This document shows positions 53,158 through 61,269 of a stretch of 64,000 nucleotides of DNA, in pieces (the stretch's first letter is position 1; the number at the start of each line of letters is the position of its first letter). The DNA is from Nitrosopumilales archaeon (GTDB lineage Archaea > Thermoproteota > Nitrososphaeria > Nitrososphaerales > Nitrososphaeraceae): positions 8,022 through 72,021 of the forward strand of contig JBIQJB010000008.1 in NCBI GenBank assembly GCA_044507735.1. Direction: 5' to 3'. The notes beneath the pieces are model-generated. The model was not told where the DNA came from, did no database searches, and saw nothing but the letters and a program-made list of their open reading frames with translations. A program made the translations under genes and the position numbers.

Positions 53158-53541
53158 TTGACGATAGTATCTGTTTCGCTTAACGATGAAATTCTGCGAG
53201 AGATTGACAAGCTGCAAAAGGCTCTAGGCTTCTCCGGCAGATCAGAAATTGTAAGGGCAGGCATAAGGAGTCTACTTGCAGAAGAAAGAGACAGGCAGAA
53301 TTTGTCAGGGCGCATCTTTGCCGTATTGCTGGTCATACATGACGAAAAGTCAGACGACCAGGTTACTGAAATGGGACATGACTATGACAAGGTGATAAGC
53401 ACGCACATACACAACAAGATCGGAGGCGACAAGTGCTTGGAGATATTCCTGCTGAAGGGCGATGCAGAAGAAATAACAGACATGACCAAAAAGTTCCAGT
53501 CTAACAAAAAGACGGATTACGTAAAGCTGATCGCGATGTAG
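53158..53541 (+). CDS. nikR: NikR-family (CopG RHH + ACT) metal-responsive regulator
   Basis: IVSVSL..GFSGRSEIVR; HDY..STHIHNK..KCLEI..LKG. Confidence 0.88.
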   Translation: MTIVSVSLNDEILREIDKLQKALGFSGRSEIVRAGIRSLLAEERDRQNLSGRIFAVLLVIHDEKSDDQVTEMGHDYDKVISTHIHNKIGGDKCLEIFLLKGDAEEITDMTKKFQSNKKTDYVKLIAM

Positions 53542-53724: not shown

Positions 53725-54291
53725 TTAGAAGCCGCCGAAATCTCCGAAATCCCCAAAGTCGCCTCCAAAGTCTCCTCCAGAGTCTCCTTCGGCGCCTGCC
53801 GCTTCTCCGCCGCCGTCTGCTGCTGCAGCACCTCCTTCGGCTCCAGCAAGCCCGCTCTCAGCTGGGGTCATGGCCATGCCCATCATCGACATCATGGACA
53901 TAAAGAACATGGCATTCATGATGCCAGAGAAGAGCATCAGCGGCAACCACATCCTGTTGCTGTCCATGTAGTTCTGCAGCTGCTGCGTCTGGCCGTTGCT
54001 GTACCACTGCTGTATCTGCTGAGCCTGCTTCTCAAGCTCTAGCTTTTTCGCGTTGAGCAGCTGGAGGCCGGTGTGGCTGATGGCATACTCCATCTTTTTC
54101 CCTCCGAAAAAGCTCTTCTTCTCGGTGCCGATGATCAGCCTCTGCGTCATCAAATCGTTAACTATCAGCTCTACCTCTGGCTTGCTCAGCCTAGTTACCT
54201 TGGCAATCTTGTCAACGGTCTTCATGCCCCTTGCTATCGCGTCCAGAACCATAAAGTGATTCGGGCTCTCGTTGACTCGTATGTTTGACAT
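53725..54291 (-). CDS. Winged-helix protein with Met-rich hydrophobic segment and Gly-rich tail
   Basis: VLDAIARG...KIAKVT...LIIG...YAIS; MMSMMGM; GGDFGG. Confidence 0.8.
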   Translation of the reverse strand: MSNIRVNESPNHFMVLDAIARGMKTVDKIAKVTRLSKPEVELIVNDLMTQRLIIGTEKKSFFGGKKMEYAISHTGLQLLNAKKLELEKQAQQIQQWYSNGQTQQLQNYMDSNRMWLPLMLFSGIMNAMFFMSMMSMMGMAMTPAESGLAGAEGGAAAADGGGEAAGAEGDSGGDFGGDFGDFGDFGGF

Positions 54292-54665: not shown

Positions 54666-57419
54666 TTAGCCCGAGCCGCAGCCGCTAAAGCCGCACTCGA
54701 TGCACACGTTGCATCCTTCGGTGATTATCAGCTTCGCGTTGCAGGTTGGGCAGTGGTCCTCGTTTGAGTCCATCATGGCTGCTGCCGCCATCTGATGGTG
54801 TGCCCCTCCTGTTGTTGACGGCTTTTTCATTTCTGCTGTTTGAGCAGTCTGGGGAGCAGCTGCTGCTGTCTGAACCACTGGTTTTTCCTCCTCTTCCACG
54901 CCAGATTCCTTGAATATCTTTTGCATCTGCTCCAGGACGTATGGTTCCTTGATGTTTGCGTTAACATAGTCAACTATGTACCTGCTCGGCTTTACCGCAA
55001 ACGCCTTTTCGCCCGTGTTCTTGCCTGTGATGTGCAGCACTTGCTCGTGGCGCGAGCCGTCCCTGAACACAGTCACACCTTTGAGTCCGAGCTCATGGGA
55101 CAGCAGGTAGGCGCATTTCACATCCTCGGCAGTCACGTCGCCGGGCATGTTGATCGTCTTTGCTATTGCGTTGCTTATCCATTTCTGCCATACAGCCTGG
55201 GCCATCACGTGGTCGGTCCAGTGGATGTCGATAGCAGTGACGAATATGCGCTGCATCCACTCCGGGATCTCGGGGATGCCGCGGACAGAGCCATAGTTGT
55301 TTGCAACCTTGGTCAATATCTCGTCGTTGTAGAGGCCGTTCTCCTTGAGCGCGTTCTCAAACACCTTGTCGGTGTAGAAGAACCTGCCCACTGTCACGCG
55401 CTTCTCGTATACAAGCGCAAACACCGGCTCGACTCCGTTTGCAGTGTCGGCAATCATTGACAGCGTGCCTGTCGGAGCGATTGTCGATGTCCATGAGTTG
55501 CGGATGCCGTGCTTCTTTATCTTTTCAACCAGAGTGTCCCAGTCGTATGTGTGGGTTTCCTTTGGCAGCTCGTAATAGCCTGCCACGGGGATGCGGCCCT
55601 TGACGTAGTCGCTCTCGCCGAACATCGGGAATGGACCGCGTGTCCTTGCAATCGCCACGCTCTCTTCCATGCTGATGTATGATACGGCCTCTGCGAGCTT
55701 GTTCATGAATTCATAGCCGTCCTTAGAGTTGTATGGAACCTTGAGCAGGAACAGCAGGTCGGCGATTCCCATGATGCCAAGACCGATCCTCCTTGTTTCC
55801 TTCGTGGCAACCCTGATCTCGTCCACCGGATACTTGTTCATGTCAATGATGTTGTCGAGGAACCTTGTGGCCAGCCTGATCGCCTGCTCGTAGCGCTGCC
55901 AGTCAAACTCGTAGGCGCCATCTGCCTTGCGCTTGACAAAGTTGGCGAGGTTTATCGAGCCGAGGTTGCACGACTCGTACGGGTACAGCGACTGCTCGCC
56001 GCACGGGTTTGTGGCTCGCAGCGGGCCGTGCCTTGCGTTGATCATAGGGTTGTACTTGTTGATGTTGTCAAAGAATATCACTCCCGGCTCTGCGCTCTTC
56101 CATGCGCTCAGCGCGATCAGGTCGATGAGCTGCTGCGCGTCTATCTGCCTCATTGGCGCCCTGTTCCTCGGGCTGCGCAGCGTATACTTGTGATTGCCTT
56201 CCTTGTTCACCAGCGCCTGCCAGAAATCCTCCCAGATGCCTACAGAGACGTTAAAGTTCTCAAAGACTCCGGGCTTTGTCTTGGCAGTGACAAACTTTTC
56301 GATGTCTGGGTGCCACGCTTCGAGTATGCCCATGTTGGCGCCCCTGCGCTTGCCTCCCTGCTTGACAACATTGGTGATGGTGTCAATGATGTTCATGAAG
56401 GAGACTGGACCCGATGCGACGCCGGATGTTGAAGCGACAATGTCGCCTTCTGGCCGCAGGTCAGAGTAGTTGATGCCAACTCCACCGCCCGACTTGAAGA
56501 TCATCGCAGCATCTGTTGACGACTTCATGATGCCTGCCATGTCATCCGGCATGCTGAGCACAAAACACGCTGACAGTTGCCCCAGCCTTGCGCCTGCGTT
56601 CATCAGCGTAGGCGTGTTTGGCAGAAAGTCACGTGACACCATAAGGTTGTAGTATGCCTTGATCTGCTCTTCATACTGTGCCATCTTGCCCTCTGCAATG
56701 AGCCTGAGCAGGTCCTTGAAGCTGATCTTCATTTGGCCCTGCTGCGCGCAGTGGATGTAATGGCGTATGATGGCTTCAAAGTGGTACTTGTTAAGATAGT
56801 AAGAGCCGATGTGCAGTTTGTTGTCAAAGTCGTCCAGTTTTGAATAGTAGCGCTCGGCTTCCTCGATGCTCTGCGTGTGGCCGCCAGCAAGGTTGAACAC
56901 GGCGGGATCGTGCATGACATCGGCTATTGCGACCAGCGTAGCGACGCGCTCGAACATCTGCTTTGGGCCCTCGATTATCTCGTTGTTGCCGTCCCTCAGC
57001 AGGTAGCGGGCTGCAAGCACTCTCAGTGAGTTGAGGTCAAACGCCTTGTCTACCTCGTCCAGGTCCCGCTTGTTGAGGACTTTCATCTTTTCATCTCTCA
57101 GCTTGCGCCTCTCGTGCCTGTAGAGTATGTAGGCCTTTGCCGTCTCTGACAGCCCTTCCTCTATCAGTATCGACTCCACCATGTCTTGTACGTCTTCCAC
57201 GCTTGGAACAACCGTCTTTTCGCCCTGGACCATCCTCTGGACTACCCTGGCAGCTAGTCTTTCTGCTAGCGGATAATCCGGTTTGCCAGTTGCAACCAGT
57301 GCCTTGTATATGGCATTGGAAATTTTTGACTGTTCAAAGTTTACGACGCGTCCATCACGCTTGCGTATCTGCGCGATTAGTTCCTTGGAATTATTATTAA
57401 ATTCAGTAACTCCCGCCAT
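54666..57419 (-). CDS. nrdJ: Class II (adenosylcobalamin-dependent) ribonucleotide reductase with N-terminal ATP cone
   Basis: IRKRDGRVVNF..KI ATP cone; PNTPTLMNAG, LSACFV, RRGANMG, TNPCGEQ..ESCNLG, IAPTGT; C-terminal Cys motifs. Confidence 0.97.
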   Translation of the reverse strand: MAGVTEFNNNSKELIAQIRKRDGRVVNFEQSKISNAIYKALVATGKPDYPLAERLAARVVQRMVQGEKTVVPSVEDVQDMVESILIEEGLSETAKAYILYRHERRKLRDEKMKVLNKRDLDEVDKAFDLNSLRVLAARYLLRDGNNEIIEGPKQMFERVATLVAIADVMHDPAVFNLAGGHTQSIEEAERYYSKLDDFDNKLHIGSYYLNKYHFEAIIRHYIHCAQQGQMKISFKDLLRLIAEGKMAQYEEQIKAYYNLMVSRDFLPNTPTLMNAGARLGQLSACFVLSMPDDMAGIMKSSTDAAMIFKSGGGVGINYSDLRPEGDIVASTSGVASGPVSFMNIIDTITNVVKQGGKRRGANMGILEAWHPDIEKFVTAKTKPGVFENFNVSVGIWEDFWQALVNKEGNHKYTLRSPRNRAPMRQIDAQQLIDLIALSAWKSAEPGVIFFDNINKYNPMINARHGPLRATNPCGEQSLYPYESCNLGSINLANFVKRKADGAYEFDWQRYEQAIRLATRFLDNIIDMNKYPVDEIRVATKETRRIGLGIMGIADLLFLLKVPYNSKDGYEFMNKLAEAVSYISMEESVAIARTRGPFPMFGESDYVKGRIPVAGYYELPKETHTYDWDTLVEKIKKHGIRNSWTSTIAPTGTLSMIADTANGVEPVFALVYEKRVTVGRFFYTDKVFENALKENGLYNDEILTKVANNYGSVRGIPEIPEWMQRIFVTAIDIHWTDHVMAQAVWQKWISNAIAKTINMPGDVTAEDVKCAYLLSHELGLKGVTVFRDGSRHEQVLHITGKNTGEKAFAVKPSRYIVDYVNANIKEPYVLEQMQKIFKESGVEEEEKPVVQTAAAAPQTAQTAEMKKPSTTGGAHHQMAAAAMMDSNEDHCPTCNAKLIITEGCNVCIECGFSGCGSG

Positions 57420-57703
57420 CCCGCACTATACCATAAACCACTAGTACTTATATCTTTTAGATAAAGAAGTGTACTCATTAATCAGCATAAGTGTACCTTT
57501 CCAATAATAAAGTAAAACCAAGCTGAAATCCGAGTACAGGAGTATAATATTTCCAATAATTGAAAAGAAAGTTCTGCAATTACAAAATCTGCAAACGTCG
57601 GCATCCTGTTTACGTTATCATCATAATTCTGAAAAAGAATGATGATGCGGCGCGGCAGCAGCAGCTGTTGCAGTCGCAGTTGCTGCTGCCGCTGTTGTCG
57701 AAA

Positions 57704-59782
57704 TTACGAGTACACTGCCAGCTTGTGCGGCGACTTGCAGTGCTCGCACTTTTCTGCAGCAGCTTTTGACCGTCTGCCGCATGTAGCGCACACTGAAAGC
57801 CTGATGCGGGGGCGGAGGAACGGCAGCTCTGATGCTGCTTCAAGCGCGCCCTTTATGTCGGCAGCTGTCTCCAGGTCGGTGACGTCCAGGCTGGCCACAA
57901 AGCCTCCGTTCAGCTGTTTGTCTATTGCCATGCACTCCTGGATTGCAGCCCTGTCTGAGAGGATCTCCCTGCCATTGAGCGTCATTCCCTGGGAATAGCT
58001 GGTGGTATTCTGGGATTGCAGGAGCGAGACCTTGCCGTACTTCTCCGAGTCGAGGCTGGCAAACCTTGTGCCGCTGTTGTCAGCGACCATCGAGATGCCC
58101 GCTCCCTCCTCGCCAAGCGGCTTGGCCTGCGTGGCAGCGACTTCGACCGCTGTCTTCAGGACCTTCTGCAGTATGTCGCCAGAAGACTCGCCAAGTATGT
58201 TGTAGACAGACTCCCTTGTACCCGTAAGGTTGATCACTATTGCAGATGAACCGCGCTGCATTGACTGGGTCGCGCTTGCAAGCGATGGCAGCAGCCCCTT
58301 CTTGACATAGTCTACAATTGTCTTCTTGCGCACCGCCATTGCGGCAAGCGACGGCTTGATCATGAGCGCGAGCTTTGCTCGGAAGTATGTTTCGTCCTTG
58401 TTCGATTCATATGCTAGTCGCGGCAGATTTATCGAAAGCGAATGGAGTGACATCGTTGCGGGAGCGGCGCCACCTTTGCCTGCCTTGCGGATGCCGCTGC
58501 TTGCCCGCACGCCGCCCTTGCCCATCAAGACGATCCCTCCGCTACGCACCGCCGCAACGATGTGATCTAGGCTGTCGTTCACAGTGCCTGTCAGTGCCAG
58601 GCCGATCCTTGGCACCGGCGTGACATCCACGTATCTTTTGTAGCCGTCGAGCAGCGCGTTCAGCTGTCGGGCGTCAAGCTCGGGCACGACGATCGTTGTT
58701 GTCGGCATGCCGTTGGCAGAATGCGATGGAGCTGCGGATGAAGCAGACAGTGCCCTTGCAAAGCGTGATGAAATGTCTTCAGGGTCCTTGATGTTCTTTA
58801 GCAGCGATGGCACGATGCCTTCAAGCACGACTTCAGACGACGCTTCCCTTGACAGGAGTGATACCAGCGCAGGCAGAGCTGCAGCCACATCCTCCGAGCT
58901 CTTTATCGCGGGAATGCGGGTCACGCCCAGAAAGCGTCCCTTCAGATCAAGGCCTTCCTCGAGCTCAGACAGGTCAAGAAAGATTGTGTCGGGTAGCAGG
59001 CCCCATACGCCAGGGTTAGAGATGTTTATCTCGCCTGCAAGATGCATGTCTGCGATATCCTTTGGGAGGGTGTTGAAGATGAGATACTCGGAAAAGATCG
59101 AGCCGGCGGCCCTGGCCATCGCGGCGTCTACTGTAGCGCCCTCGGCCGAGAGCAATTCGACAATGTCTGACGACGGCAGCCCGTGGCGCGCAAGTTTGTT
59201 CCTATATTCTTCATGGCCGTGCTCTATTAGAACCGAGTTGACCGTCTCGCGTATTAGAGAAGACGTGAGGTAGGCGGTCTGGAACTTGTAGATCTTGTTC
59301 TCCACCTCTTCTGTGATCTTGTGTGCCTGTTCCAGAGGCAGGTTGGCCTCCCTCACAAGCGACTGGATTATCTTGTGGGAGTTGAACTCCTCGATGGTAT
59401 GCTTGCTCGTCCTGACATACATCTTGCCGCTCTCGATTATCGAGCGCTCCTCGATCTGCCTTGCCAGGCTCAGGACGAGCTTGCCAAGGTTGGTGATTGT
59501 GTAGCGGCGCTCTGTCTTGTTGAGAGAGACTAGCAGCTGCCTTAGCAGCTTTCTCAGGTGGTATGCGAACTTGCCTGACTCTTTCTTTGACTTAAAGCCG
59601 GCAAGCGCCTTGAGCTCGGAATAAGTGAGAGGCCCCTTTGTGTTGAGAATGCGCAGGATGTCGATCCTGTTCGGGCTGGCCATTACAGAGAAAATCATTC
59701 TTACACGCTTTGACGCAGATTCTAAGACTCCACCCTTCCTGGAATCTCTTGTTGATTGAGAGTCAAAACCCATCTGTTCCAT
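57704..59782 (-). CDS. ArsR-type wHTH + ATP cone + degenerate class III RNR (NrdD-like) domain + zinc ribbon
   Basis: ASPNRIDILRIL..FAYHLRKL; VRTS..EFNSHKI; LPKDIADMHLAGEI; SINLPRLA; CATC..CEHC; no glycyl-radical motif. Confidence 0.85.
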   Translation of the reverse strand: MEQMGFDSQSTRDSRKGGVLESASKRVRMIFSVMASPNRIDILRILNTKGPLTYSELKALAGFKSKKESGKFAYHLRKLLRQLLVSLNKTERRYTITNLGKLVLSLARQIEERSIIESGKMYVRTSKHTIEEFNSHKIIQSLVREANLPLEQAHKITEEVENKIYKFQTAYLTSSLIRETVNSVLIEHGHEEYRNKLARHGLPSSDIVELLSAEGATVDAAMARAAGSIFSEYLIFNTLPKDIADMHLAGEINISNPGVWGLLPDTIFLDLSELEEGLDLKGRFLGVTRIPAIKSSEDVAAALPALVSLLSREASSEVVLEGIVPSLLKNIKDPEDISSRFARALSASSAAPSHSANGMPTTTIVVPELDARQLNALLDGYKRYVDVTPVPRIGLALTGTVNDSLDHIVAAVRSGGIVLMGKGGVRASSGIRKAGKGGAAPATMSLHSLSINLPRLAYESNKDETYFRAKLALMIKPSLAAMAVRKKTIVDYVKKGLLPSLASATQSMQRGSSAIVINLTGTRESVYNILGESSGDILQKVLKTAVEVAATQAKPLGEEGAGISMVADNSGTRFASLDSEKYGKVSLLQSQNTTSYSQGMTLNGREILSDRAAIQECMAIDKQLNGGFVASLDVTDLETAADIKGALEAASELPFLRPRIRLSVCATCGRRSKAAAEKCEHCKSPHKLAVYS

Positions 59783-59899
59783 CGCACCCCGTTATCAAGG
59801 TAAATGATTAAAACACCTTTGTAAAATATTTTTTACTAACAGTACGATCGGCCCTACTTGGGCCAATTGACCTTTTGGTCAATTATCTTAGCTCTTGCT

Positions 59900-60520
59900 C
59901 TATACCAGCACGCCCTGTTCCTCTATAGGCGCCTCTTCCTTTTTCTTGACTTCCTGAGAGGGGATATTCATCGGCACTTCTGGGAGCTTGGCCTTTGCCT
60001 CGCTCTCCAGCACCCCCTCGATCTCGTTGAGGATGGAAAGGGCGTCTTGGTCCACAGGAGTCGTGATCCTGGCTTCTGCCTTGATGTTTGCGTTGATAAG
60101 CACGTCAGAGGTGATTTCCGAGACCTCAGAGAGCGTCTGGCCGGCAGCCGGGATGGCCTTGCTCAGCTCAGACTGGATGCCCTTTATCATGTCAACCGTG
60201 GGCTCGATGGTGTCGAGGATTTCGGCAAATTCGTTGATCGTGCTGAAGCGGATCACAACCGCCTCAAGCGCCAGGCCAGTGTGCTGAGTAGTCCTACGCA
60301 GCCGCCTCACGTTCGTCAGCTCCATCGCCAAGATCTTTGCGCGGGCGTTGTTTCCTGACTTGATGTTAGACGCTATCTGCTCTAGATAGTATGCCTCAGT
60401 CTTGGCGAACTTTTGATCGAGCGTCTTGAGGCGCATGAGCTGGTTGTAAACCACTCCCGTAGCATTGGTGATCTGGCTCATGAACTGCTGGCGCTTGTCT
60501 CCTCCCATACTTACTACCAT
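59900..60520 (-). CDS. ESCRT-III/Snf7 (CdvB-like) paralog
   Basis: RAKILAMELTNVRR...LALEAVVIRFSTINEF...DALSILNE...KLPEVP. Confidence 0.85.
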   Translation of the reverse strand: MVVSMGGDKRQQFMSQITNATGVVYNQLMRLKTLDQKFAKTEAYYLEQIASNIKSGNNARAKILAMELTNVRRLRRTTQHTGLALEAVVIRFSTINEFAEILDTIEPTVDMIKGIQSELSKAIPAAGQTLSEVSEITSDVLINANIKAEARITTPVDQDALSILNEIEGVLESEAKAKLPEVPMNIPSQEVKKKEEAPIEEQGVLV

Positions 60521-60654
60521 CAGGTGAAACAAAGCTGGAAAACTCCTAATGTTGTACTCTGTGTACAAAAAGCTGCGACAAAGCTGAGCTACGAAAAAAG
60601 TTGTATCGTTAATAGCGATAATTGCACATACACAACTTAGAGTGTTATTGTAGG

Positions 60655-61269
60655 ATGGCGGAGGCAGACGAGGATCACGGTCACCTTTCAAAAAGAGAAC
60701 ACATCGCCAAGCACCTCGGCGCGCGCAAGATCGAGTTCATATCGACGGCAGTGGTGTGCGTAGTTTTTGCGATAAGCTTTGCCCATCTCGAGTACTATTA
60801 CATCAAGGATCCCGCCTTGCAGATCTCAAACGGCAAGGTGGCGGTCACCGACTCGAACTTTGACAGGAGCAGAGAGACAGAGCCTATCATCGGCAACATG
60901 TACCAGTACCACCTCTTTCCCATGCTCTTCATTTTCGTCCTCATCAGCTTTGCAGCCCTCTGGGACGACATGTCCTTCAAGCTGCTCGGCAATCACAAGC
61001 GCATCAAGGCCGCATCTATCGGCATGGCCAACCTCGTCACCGCAATCTTGGTCGAGGATTTCGCGTGGTTTGCCAACAGGTGGGCGGTCCCACTCGAGAG
61101 CGACCCAAAAGGCGGGCTCCTCATGCAGTACTCTGATTGGACCTCGATGCACATGGGAGCGATAGACCTGGGAAGTTTTGTAATACCGGTATGGTACCTG
61201 GTTGCCATAGCGATCGCCACTCTGGCATACTATTTCGGCTTTCGCAAGCACAACAAAATACAACAATAG
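60655..61269 (+). CDS. Membrane protein (4 TM)
   Basis: FAHLEY, YHLFPM, VEDFAWF, DWT..G..IPVWY. Confidence 0.8.
   Translation: MAEADEDHGHLSKREHIAKHLGARKIEFISTAVVCVVFAISFAHLEYYYIKDPALQISNGKVAVTDSNFDRSRETEPIIGNMYQYHLFPMLFIFVLISFAALWDDMSFKLLGNHKRIKAASIGMANLVTAILVEDFAWFANRWAVPLESDPKGGLLMQYSDWTSMHMGAIDLGSFVIPVWYLVAIAIATLAYYFGFRKHNKIQQ

Follow-up and report, generated by a model that had tools for sequence, protein, structure and literature searches.

An apparently catalytically dead class III ribonucleotide reductase with a winged helix and an ATP-cone: a candidate archaeal switch for DNA-precursor supply

Class III ribonucleotide reductases (RNRs), the NrdD proteins, need a glycyl radical, a thiyl Cys and the activase NrdG for activity, and their specificity effector binds at the dimer interface. 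The ATP-cone of RNRs and of the regulator NrdR canonically begins with a phosphate-binding K-R-x-G. Repressors of the ArsR/SmtB and MarR families act as dimers on imperfect palindromes that overlap promoters. The radical requirements of NrdD are stated in part in PMC2795772. Control of RNR transcription in archaea is largely unknown: according to passages of PMC9110341 and Table 2 of PMC2795772, NrdR, which often controls its own gene (PMC9110341), is rare there, which leaves that regulatory role open. Here we describe a gene in a 64,000-nucleotide stretch of DNA from a Nitrosopumilales archaeon (the window; contig JBIQJB010000008.1). It encodes a 692-aa protein, P0001, and lies upstream of nrdJ, which encodes an adenosylcobalamin-dependent class II RNR. 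Our comparisons support the view that P0001 joins a winged helix and an ATP-cone to a class III RNR that is catalytically dead. With a probability of roughly 0.6, this pseudo-enzyme is a dimeric, autoregulated, nucleotide-sensing transcription factor for the supply of deoxyribonucleoside triphosphates (dNTPs). The gene and its parts are as follows.

57704..59782 (-): P0001 gene (winged helix-turn-helix, ATP-cone, apparently dead NrdD), 692-aa open frame
59471..59695 (-): ArsR-like winged helix-turn-helix, residues 30-104; DUF7347 42.4 bits (cut-off 27.6), HTH_20 32 bits (cut-off 27)
59204..59422 (-): ATP-cone of a 'VRTS' type, residues 121-193; Pfam PF03477 46.2 bits (cut-off 25.8)
57803..59170 (-): NrdD-like alpha/beta-barrel core without catalytic residues, residues 205-660
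58487..58510 (-): finger-loop relic VRASSGIR, residues 425-432; Gly430 invariant, Ile431 at the column of the thiyl-radical Cys
57737..57790 (-): C-terminal CxxC-N10-CxxC zinc ribbon, C665, C668, C679 and C682
54666..57419 (-): nrdJ, adenosylcobalamin-dependent class II RNR, 917 aa, canonical ATP-cone

An earlier note on this DNA, made from its letters alone, had described a winged helix, an ATP-cone, NrdD-like motifs, a terminal ribbon, five Cys and a stop right after the ribbon. We found all of these in the 692-aa frame. The motifs LPKDIADMHLAGEI, SINLPRLA and RFASLDSEKYG are present in the translation; the N-terminal 600 residues contain none of the five Cys; and the chain stops 10 residues past the last ribbon Cys. 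At the ribbon, all four Cys show little or no variation. Two observations back the start at M1: the start context ATGGAACAG is conserved, and tblastn matches begin at residue 1. Against Pfam NRDD the protein scores 60 bits (cut-off 26.2) in a partial match to profile positions 275-536 of 562, and against the NCBIfam NrdD equivalogs it reaches at most 46.8 bits, with cut-offs of 326-764. Bearing on metal-sensing sites of the ArsR/SmtB kind, the NCBIfam model NF033788 gave 22.5 bits (cut-off 55), in a chain whose first 600 residues hold no Cys.

By length, the matches to P0001 separate into short forms (about 600-720 aa), whose chain stops at the ribbon, and long forms (about 740-800 aa). In the AlphaFold2 (AF2) model, the winged helix of P0001 consists of three helices and a beta-hairpin (residues 37-96), with a predicted local distance difference test score (pLDDT) of 86-93. 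Its putative recognition helix, SGKFAYHLRKL (S69-G70-K71-F72-A73-Y74-H75-L76-R77-K78-L79), is invariant or nearly so across short forms, and the core G-K-F-x-Y-H-L was found again in long forms. A conserved linker motif, [SG]SLIRE, follows the ATP-cone and reads APLIRE in most relatives. The tail before the winged helix is short in P0001 (about 28 residues, pLDDT below 50). At Nitrosopumilaceae loci (L034, L035, L017, L028 and others), this tail is a variable, highly acidic Asp/Glu/Leu/Ser repeat, encoded in some of the genomes by perfect tandem DNA repeats.

Does anything of the radical chemistry survive? As references we took 29 full-length, genuine NrdDs from Bathyarchaeia loci, which end ...SR[VI]TGYY...WNxGK (one scores 488 bits on Pfam NRDD), and we aligned them jointly with 179 winged-helix-fused relatives, 208 sequences together. 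All 29 genuine NrdDs carry the N-terminal active-site Cys and the Gly-Tyr; the CC pair of the finger loop is seen in 25/29, and the alignment has a gap there in the remaining 4. In the winged-helix-fused relatives, the N-terminal Cys occurs in 0/179, the finger-loop Cys in 18/179 and the radical Gly in 11/179; none retains two or more of these three residues, and 150 retain none. P0001 keeps 0/3. Thr266 sits in the column of the N-terminal Cys, VRASSGIR falls where genuine NrdDs have their QCCR/MCCR finger loop, and the glycyl-radical loop RxxGY, into which genuine NrdDs run on after the ribbon, is missing. Among short forms, the Gly column is empty in 39/47 and holds Gly in 0/47, and a finger-loop Cys occurs in 1/47. 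We also followed the 75 columns that are invariant in the 29 NrdDs. At 80% retention or more, long forms preserve 32 of them and short forms 10; the latter have lost the core motifs ENxN, PAE and the Asn of Y-x-N.

The genomic setting agrees with the earlier claim of catalytic loss, which had been drawn from the absent RxxGY loop, RASSGIR at the finger loop and the lack of an activase gene in the window. In the source assembly (2.33 Mb, 97% complete), no NrdG reached its cut-off: the best scores were 53.7 bits against 131 for TIGR02495 and 35.1 against 126 for TIGR02491. A genome search with TIGR00244 for NrdR gave no match. There is one NRDD match genome-wide, and there are two ATP-cones, those of nrdJ and P0001. 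nrdJ is the sole catalytic RNR match with the queries used, and its identity is solid (TIGR02504, 756.9 bits against an NCBIfam cut-off of 400; Pfam ATP-cone, RNR all-alpha and barrel domains; a cone that starts with the canonical RKRDG). It is co-oriented with the P0001 gene and lies downstream across a 284-bp gap.

The AF2 model of P0001 is confident (pLDDT 82.8, predicted TM-score 0.72). Its best Foldseek matches are all class III RNRs, first that of S. thermophilus (9dca, E 8.5e-18), then those of T. maritima, P. copri and T4; across 9dca, 4coj, 8p23 and 1hk8, E ranges from 8.5e-18 to 1e-11 at TM of about 0.5-0.67. A single-sequence search of the PDB reached only E 0.053, to T. maritima NrdD, and recognition needed profile and fold searches. 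From these matches together with the missing catalytic residues, we conclude that P0001 has an NrdD fold from which the chemistry is gone.

We then considered the dimer. A homodimer of residues 205-692 was predicted with an interface score (ipSAE) of 0.84, the best control reaching 0.00; the runs had at least 93% of contacts in common and a partner pLDDT of at least 85. In a benchmark, the ipSAE mark was met by 20/30 proteins solved as pairs and by 1/23 solved as single chains, counts that hold roughly because our own alignment was used. Since NrdD dimers have already been solved, the pass may reflect likeness to them only. The predicted interface comprises residues 207-233, 280-313, 339-358, 384-392 and 492-499, with helices at about 207-233, 297-313, 339-358 and 384-392; nearly invariant residues there include E313, Y384 and P391.

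The family is widespread and its constraint is uneven. Of 8000 candidates that were scored in a protein search with P0001, 4070 matched at E<=1e-3. Identity is 74% or higher throughout the best 120, which come mostly from Nitrososphaera and are annotated 'anaerobic ribonucleoside-triphosphate reductase' or 'ArsR family regulator'; that homologs would be found under an RNR label had been foreseen. In a library clustered at 50% identity, 932 representatives matched at E<=1e-3, of which 159 passed E<=1e-30 as well. Within the class, the family occurs in 127/151 sampled genomes and in 109/111 high-quality ones. Among 26 diverse short forms, the winged helix averages 67% pairwise identity, the linker 59% and the ATP-cone 58%, against 22-32% for the barrel and ribbon. 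The core residues H247, G250, N452, P454, G521, D578 and Y596 are still conserved. In one family of genomes, f5, we found a P0001 homologue in 0/14 at E<=1e-10 (72-91% complete; G002 and G007 included) and nrdJ in 14/14. Family f5 is a natural comparison group for nrdJ control without the P0001 family. Clusters of the ESM Atlas that carry the labels Promethearchaeota and Nanobdellota contain comparable architectures, so that Asgard and DPANN archaea are leads, and leads only, for a wider spread.

We observed a conserved element in the P0001 promoter. The non-coding features around the gene are:

59805..59825 (-): conserved 21-bp promoter box, TTTACAAAGGTGTTTTAATCA, consensus TTTACAAAGTAGTTTTAATCA; starts 43 nt upstream of the P0001 ATG
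57420..57703 (-): spacer between the P0001 gene and nrdJ, carrying the nrdJ promoter; 21-bp box absent
57444-57457 (-): TATA-like AAAAGATATAAGTA before nrdJ
57490-57496 and 57468-57474 (-): two GTACACT words, 22 nt apart, before nrdJ
57631..57692 (-): terminator-like hairpin and T-run directly 3' of the P0001 stop (12-bp GC hairpin 57652-57692, T-run 57631-57639)
59865..59884 (-): inverted repeat AATTGACC-AAAA-GGTCAATT, just past the stop of a Snf7/CdvB-like gene; z -3.34

The box occurs with at most 3 mismatches in 74/79 loci, down to 49% protein identity, in flanks that diverge, and in 68/79 loci it starts 42-43 nt from the ATG of the P0001-family gene. It recurs in family f3, at about 40% protein identity. 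In the genome it is unique: its position weight matrix (PWM) scores 32.4 bits here and 13.6 bits at the next-best site. Inside it lies an imperfect inverted repeat, TTACAA-N5-TTTTAA. The box is a candidate auto-operator overlapping the core promoter. The search for a single operator common to the P0001 and nrdJ promoters ended in rejection, as the PWM found none in 58 spacers between the genes and no second genomic copy. Loose resemblances picked by eye (AAGTAG..TTT, TGATTAA and TTTACA) were dropped, being not conserved across a group at 56-64% identity. The inverted repeat at 59865-59884 shows a compensatory change in relatives, from TTGAC/GTCAA to TCGAC/GTCGA; the repeat could form a terminator hairpin or serve as a second site.

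To compare gene order, we used coordinates from class-wide searches for the P0001 family and for nrdJ. By genome family, the arrangements are:

f1: P0001 homologue upstream of nrdJ, same strand, 4/4, window included
f2: P0001 homologue upstream of nrdJ, same strand, 73/80
f3: P0001 homologue upstream of nrdJ, same strand, 3/3
f4: P0001 homologue and nrdJ convergent neighbours, 8/8
f12: P0001 homologue and nrdJ convergent neighbours, 1/1
f7: P0001 homologue and nrdJ on different contigs, 6/9; the remaining 3 have no listed nrdJ
f9: P0001 homologue and nrdJ on different contigs, 12/12
f8: no nrdJ match among those listed, 8/8

The tandem thus holds in 80/87 genomes of the order of ammonia oxidisers (f1-f3), with gaps of 128-901 bp. 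The f2 count includes one unpublished genome (G132); of the four f2 cases on different contigs, at least two (G064, G145) are breaks at contig edges, consistent with adjacency. We also surveyed 84 Nitrososphaeraceae-type loci, 80 from soil metagenome contigs and 4 from genomes: 60 are tandem with nrdJ and 16 are too short to tell. The proposed synteny with nrdJ therefore stood for the ammonia oxidisers, and linkage was not seen in the two deeper families f7 and f9.

Long forms extend this linkage to a second RNR class. Their scan covered species-representative genomes and yielded 80 loci (L144-L223): 76 from Bathyarchaeia/Bathyarchaeota, 3 from Hecatellales and 1 from a 'Thermoproteota archaeon' (a single-amplified genome); a further record, L202, is labelled as a bacterium. 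Long forms match NRDD over its full length at 212-307 bits and have a post-ribbon tail that resembles the glycyl-radical loop, with the Gly replaced (radical Gly 0/80). Fifteen of the 80 (L147, L151 and 13 others) carry a finger-loop Cys (TATGCRF) and lack the N-terminal Cys and the radical Gly; these look like decay intermediates. A second NrdD homologue lies downstream of the winged-helix form in 35/80 loci, and in 23 loci a gene for a 100-aa glutaredoxin-like protein stands between the two, with a gap of -13 to +16 nt to nrdD. Where at least 2.5 kb of downstream sequence was available (55 loci), we found a genuine nrdD in 28, an nrdJ-like gene in 4, pyrB/pyrI only in 11 and none of these in 12. 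Because such dead long forms stand upstream of live glutaredoxin-nrdD genes, the family neighbours RNR genes of two classes; its recurrent neighbour is an RNR gene, of whichever RNR class the host relies on, or another nucleotide or replication gene. Across L144-L223, pyrB (25 loci) and pyrI (17 loci) adjoin the P0001-family/nrdD cluster, and pyrimidine synthesis and ribonucleotide reduction are joined in one Bathyarchaeia neighbourhood.

A FastTree tree of 77 sequences, made with the winged helices removed and with the neighbouring Bathyarchaeia NrdDs as outgroup, is unrooted and carries local supports only. It places the 29 genuine NrdDs on one side of a branch (support 100) and all winged-helix forms on the other. 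Short forms make up a long-branched clade (support 100, branch length 1.05; with a long-branch warning) nested among the long forms. The earlier note had seen an anaerobic scaffold repurposed in an aerobe. That part is not supported as worded: since anaerobic Bathyarchaeia have dead long forms next to a live nrdD, and short forms nest among them, the loss of catalysis probably predates the aerobic lineage. In the simplest history, an NrdD with a VRTS cone would have been duplicated in an anaerobic archaeon, the copy would have gained a winged helix and lost catalysis in front of a live nrdD operon, and later lineages would have trimmed the C-terminal tail; the direction is our reading of an unrooted tree. 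The Bathyarchaeia long forms, with a live paralogue next to them, have the look of the same protein in a less reduced state.

How might such a protein work? We infer its DNA binding, ligand, sign of regulation and target set, and with them its role as a regulator. A duplicate of class III NrdD would have taken on an N-terminal ArsR-like winged helix and kept the ATP-cone and the dimeric barrel. The barrel would join two chains, as in NrdD. The two winged helices would then bind the partly palindromic TTACAA-N5-TTTTAA in the 21-bp box, over the gene's own core promoter. ATP or dATP on the ATP-cone may alter geometry or oligomeric state, as in NrdR and ATP-cone-regulated RNRs, and transcription of dNTP-supply genes would be tuned as a result. 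For ammonia oxidisers, the target next door would be nrdJ; in Bathyarchaeia, judging from gene spacing, the promoter of the P0001 homologue may drive the whole regulator-glutaredoxin-nrdD array.

A broader claim, which we hold only tentatively and put at somewhat below even odds, is that the family is the missing archaeal counterpart of NrdR, a family-wide autoregulated switch for dNTP supply in Nitrososphaeria and Bathyarchaeia built from a dead RNR dimer. The ATP-cone, and perhaps a specificity site at the dimer interface, would read the nucleotide pool, and the dimer would position the winged helices on an operator in its own promoter. Such a switch would have arisen beside a live nrdD in anaerobes and later have been kept by ammonia oxidisers for nrdJ, a direction that we read from an unrooted tree, in which the short form of the window nests among long forms of anaerobes with a live nrdD beside them.

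Several observations weigh against a dNTP-supply regulator of this kind. DNA and nucleotide binding by P0001 are deduced from its domains. Against solved MarR/ArsR/SmtB proteins, the winged helix gave E of 0.25-0.99 only. The ATP-cone is without the canonical K-R-x-G and starts V-R-T-S-K; the variant is probably functional, since it also occurs in six catalytically intact, glycyl-radical-bearing Bathyarchaeia NrdDs (L144, L164, L185 and L191 among them), and it runs throughout the winged-helix family, highly conserved across the 179 relatives. With most substrate-site motifs of the core gone, sensing of all four dNTPs by the core is doubtful. The 21-bp box could be just the conserved TFB recognition element (BRE) and TATA box of a leaderless transcript, its 3' half being a TATA box. 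It differs from the boxes of other groups: Nitrosopumilaceae have another conserved box at the same place, TAGTCAYAARTCTTATTTAC, and Bathyarchaeia have their own, CTTTAATTTTTTAAACT, whose pattern occurs in 37/80 loci scanned (before the P0001 homologue in 35/37; in the other two it precedes nrdD, at L172, or pyrB, at L156). By PWM, the 21-bp box is absent from 58/58 P0001-nrdJ spacers (0 at 8 bits or more; best 6.3). Direct control of nrdJ is therefore without sequence support, and autoregulation has it. The earlier note had pointed to 57420-57703, the nrdJ promoter, as the binding region; the conserved box lies in the P0001 promoter instead. A terminator-like hairpin (-29.9 kcal/mol, z -3.57), in a region conserved in relatives, separates the P0001 gene from nrdJ. 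Finally, the two genes lie on different contigs in f7 and f9, and 8/68 testable Nitrososphaeraceae-type loci (60/68 tandem) have room for nrdJ and lack it.

Perhaps, then, P0001 is a nucleotide-sensing transcription factor whose regulon is not, or not mainly, RNR? Its targets would be cell-cycle or replication genes such as the cdvB/Snf7-like gene, with nrdJ linkage a by-product. The sole conserved box does lie in the cdvB-P0001 intergenic region, none lies before nrdJ, and the order cdvB-P0001-nrdJ is kept in close relatives. The neighbours of the P0001 homologue in f7 include an OB-fold protein resembling single-stranded DNA-binding protein and an AAA+ ATPase resembling replication factor C, and in f9 NUDIX and HAD hydrolase genes precede it. 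However, the orientation and spacing of the box follow the P0001 ATG (42-43 nt in 68/79 loci), and an RNR gene recurs as a neighbour across two archaeal classes, which is hard to explain without an RNR-related role. We consider this alternative unlikely.

Regulation of live enzymes by dead paralogues is familiar from other systems, and P0001 might act through protein contacts and not DNA, as a regulatory or scaffolding partner of an active RNR (an NrdD heterodimer in Bathyarchaeia) or of the replication machinery; its winged helix would then serve to bind protein or nucleotide. The predicted retention of an NrdD-type dimer interface (ipSAE 0.84 against 0.00) and the live NrdD paralogue next door in Bathyarchaeia would fit such a role. 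Ammonia oxidisers, however, keep the family without any NrdD to pair with; conservation of the protein peaks in the ArsR-like winged helix, whose recognition helix is invariant; and its own promoter holds a conserved box. We regard a purely protein-contact role as distinctly unlikely.

Could P0001 still be an enzyme, one with another, non-radical nucleotide chemistry and a winged helix that autoregulates, in the manner of the 'trigger enzymes' PutA, BirA and NadR? The barrel has been kept over a wide phylogenetic span, and H247, G250, N452, P454, G521, D578 and Y596 are still conserved within it. This is offset by a core identity of only 22-32% and by the loss in short forms of 65/75 NrdD-invariant columns, ENxN, PAE and the Y-x-N Asn among them; no alternative catalytic constellation is apparent. 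Such a function is improbable. A functionless, decaying relic of an anaerobic RNR would account for the lost catalytic residues and glycyl-radical domain, but conservation effectively refutes it, given an intact frame in 109/111 high-quality genomes of the class, two constrained domains, a conserved promoter, a confident fold and, weakly, gene pieces in one RNA library (contigs only, with DNA carry-over possible).

That library, from compost, contains 35% of sampled words, and its contigs match parts of nrdJ and of the P0001 gene (57857-58141 with 0 differences; 59494-59769 with 13 differences). This is evidence of presence in an RNA library only, as the contigs come without strand, level or ends, and stretches that they leave uncovered carry no information.

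Around the two genes we noted further features. Upstream of P0001, at 59900-60691 (-), is the Snf7/CdvB-like gene (Pfam Snf7 28.9 bits); with the order cdvB-P0001-nrdJ preserved in close Nitrososphaeraceae relatives, a cell-division gene adjoins the dNTP-supply genes. At the C-terminus of nrdJ (54666-54770 (-)), a low-complexity linker rich in Ala and Gln leads into a Cys-rich tail, CPTCNAKLIITEGCNVCIECGFSGCG, probably of zinc or redox type. The matches of several nrdJ relatives are shorter and stop near residue 835. Just downstream of nrdJ, at 53158-53541 (+) and 53725-54291 (-), are two more small regulators. One is a NikR-like protein with ribbon-helix-helix and nickel-binding domains; the other has a weak MarR-like winged helix (below cut-off), a Met-rich hydrophobic stretch and a Gly/Asp/Phe-rich tail.

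Our full-text literature search found no description of the P0001 family, and word searches within PMC3019208, PMC2795772, PMC7785015 and PMC6593220 found no mention of P0001. What this work adds is the setting of the family in Bathyarchaeia, a count of the catalytic columns against references, the promoter box, a measure of constraint domain by domain and a dimer prediction. Most likely, P0001 is a so far undescribed switch by which archaea govern their DNA-precursor supply, filed in databases under an enzyme name in error. The label 'anaerobic RNR' wrongly suggests an anaerobic dNTP route in aerobes, and the family occurs in nearly every ammonia-oxidising archaeon searched, organisms that are globally abundant nitrifiers. 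If true, our proposal would be a clear case of a radical enzyme turned transcription factor with its allosteric sensor kept. The region 59783-59899, with its box at 59805-59825, is a concrete probe, and ATP and dATP are candidate ligands.

Among known systems, NrdD shares several features with P0001. P0001 has its fold, the N-terminal ATP-cone, the INLPR Asn motif, the C-terminal CxxC..CxxC ribbon and the predicted dimer. It differs in having an extra winged helix and no glycyl-radical loop, thiyl Cys or N-terminal active-site Cys, in a genome without an activase above cut-off, and in scoring at most 46.8 bits against equivalog cut-offs of at least 326. With the long forms of Bathyarchaeia and Hecatellales it has in common the winged helix, the 'VRTS' cone, the G-x-R finger-loop relic and the side of the tree (support 100); those proteins, at 740-800 aa, keep a Gly-less tail resembling the glycyl-radical loop and lie upstream of a live glutaredoxin-nrdD pair, not of nrdJ. 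HTH_20 and DUF7347, both above cut-off, tie it to ArsR/SmtB and MarR repressors; unlike them, it would sense through a nucleotide domain, not a metal or small-ligand site, and dimerise through an RNR barrel. NrdR, like P0001, has an ATP-cone beside a DNA-binding module and a gene linked to nrd genes. However, NrdR consists of an N-terminal zinc ribbon and an ATP-cone, whereas the DNA-binding module of P0001 is an ArsR-like winged helix, its zinc ribbon is the C-terminal one of NrdD, and a 450-residue dead RNR barrel is attached; we saw no NrdR-box-like repeat before nrdJ. P0001 is most likely a functional analogue of NrdR and not, beyond the ATP-cone, its homologue.

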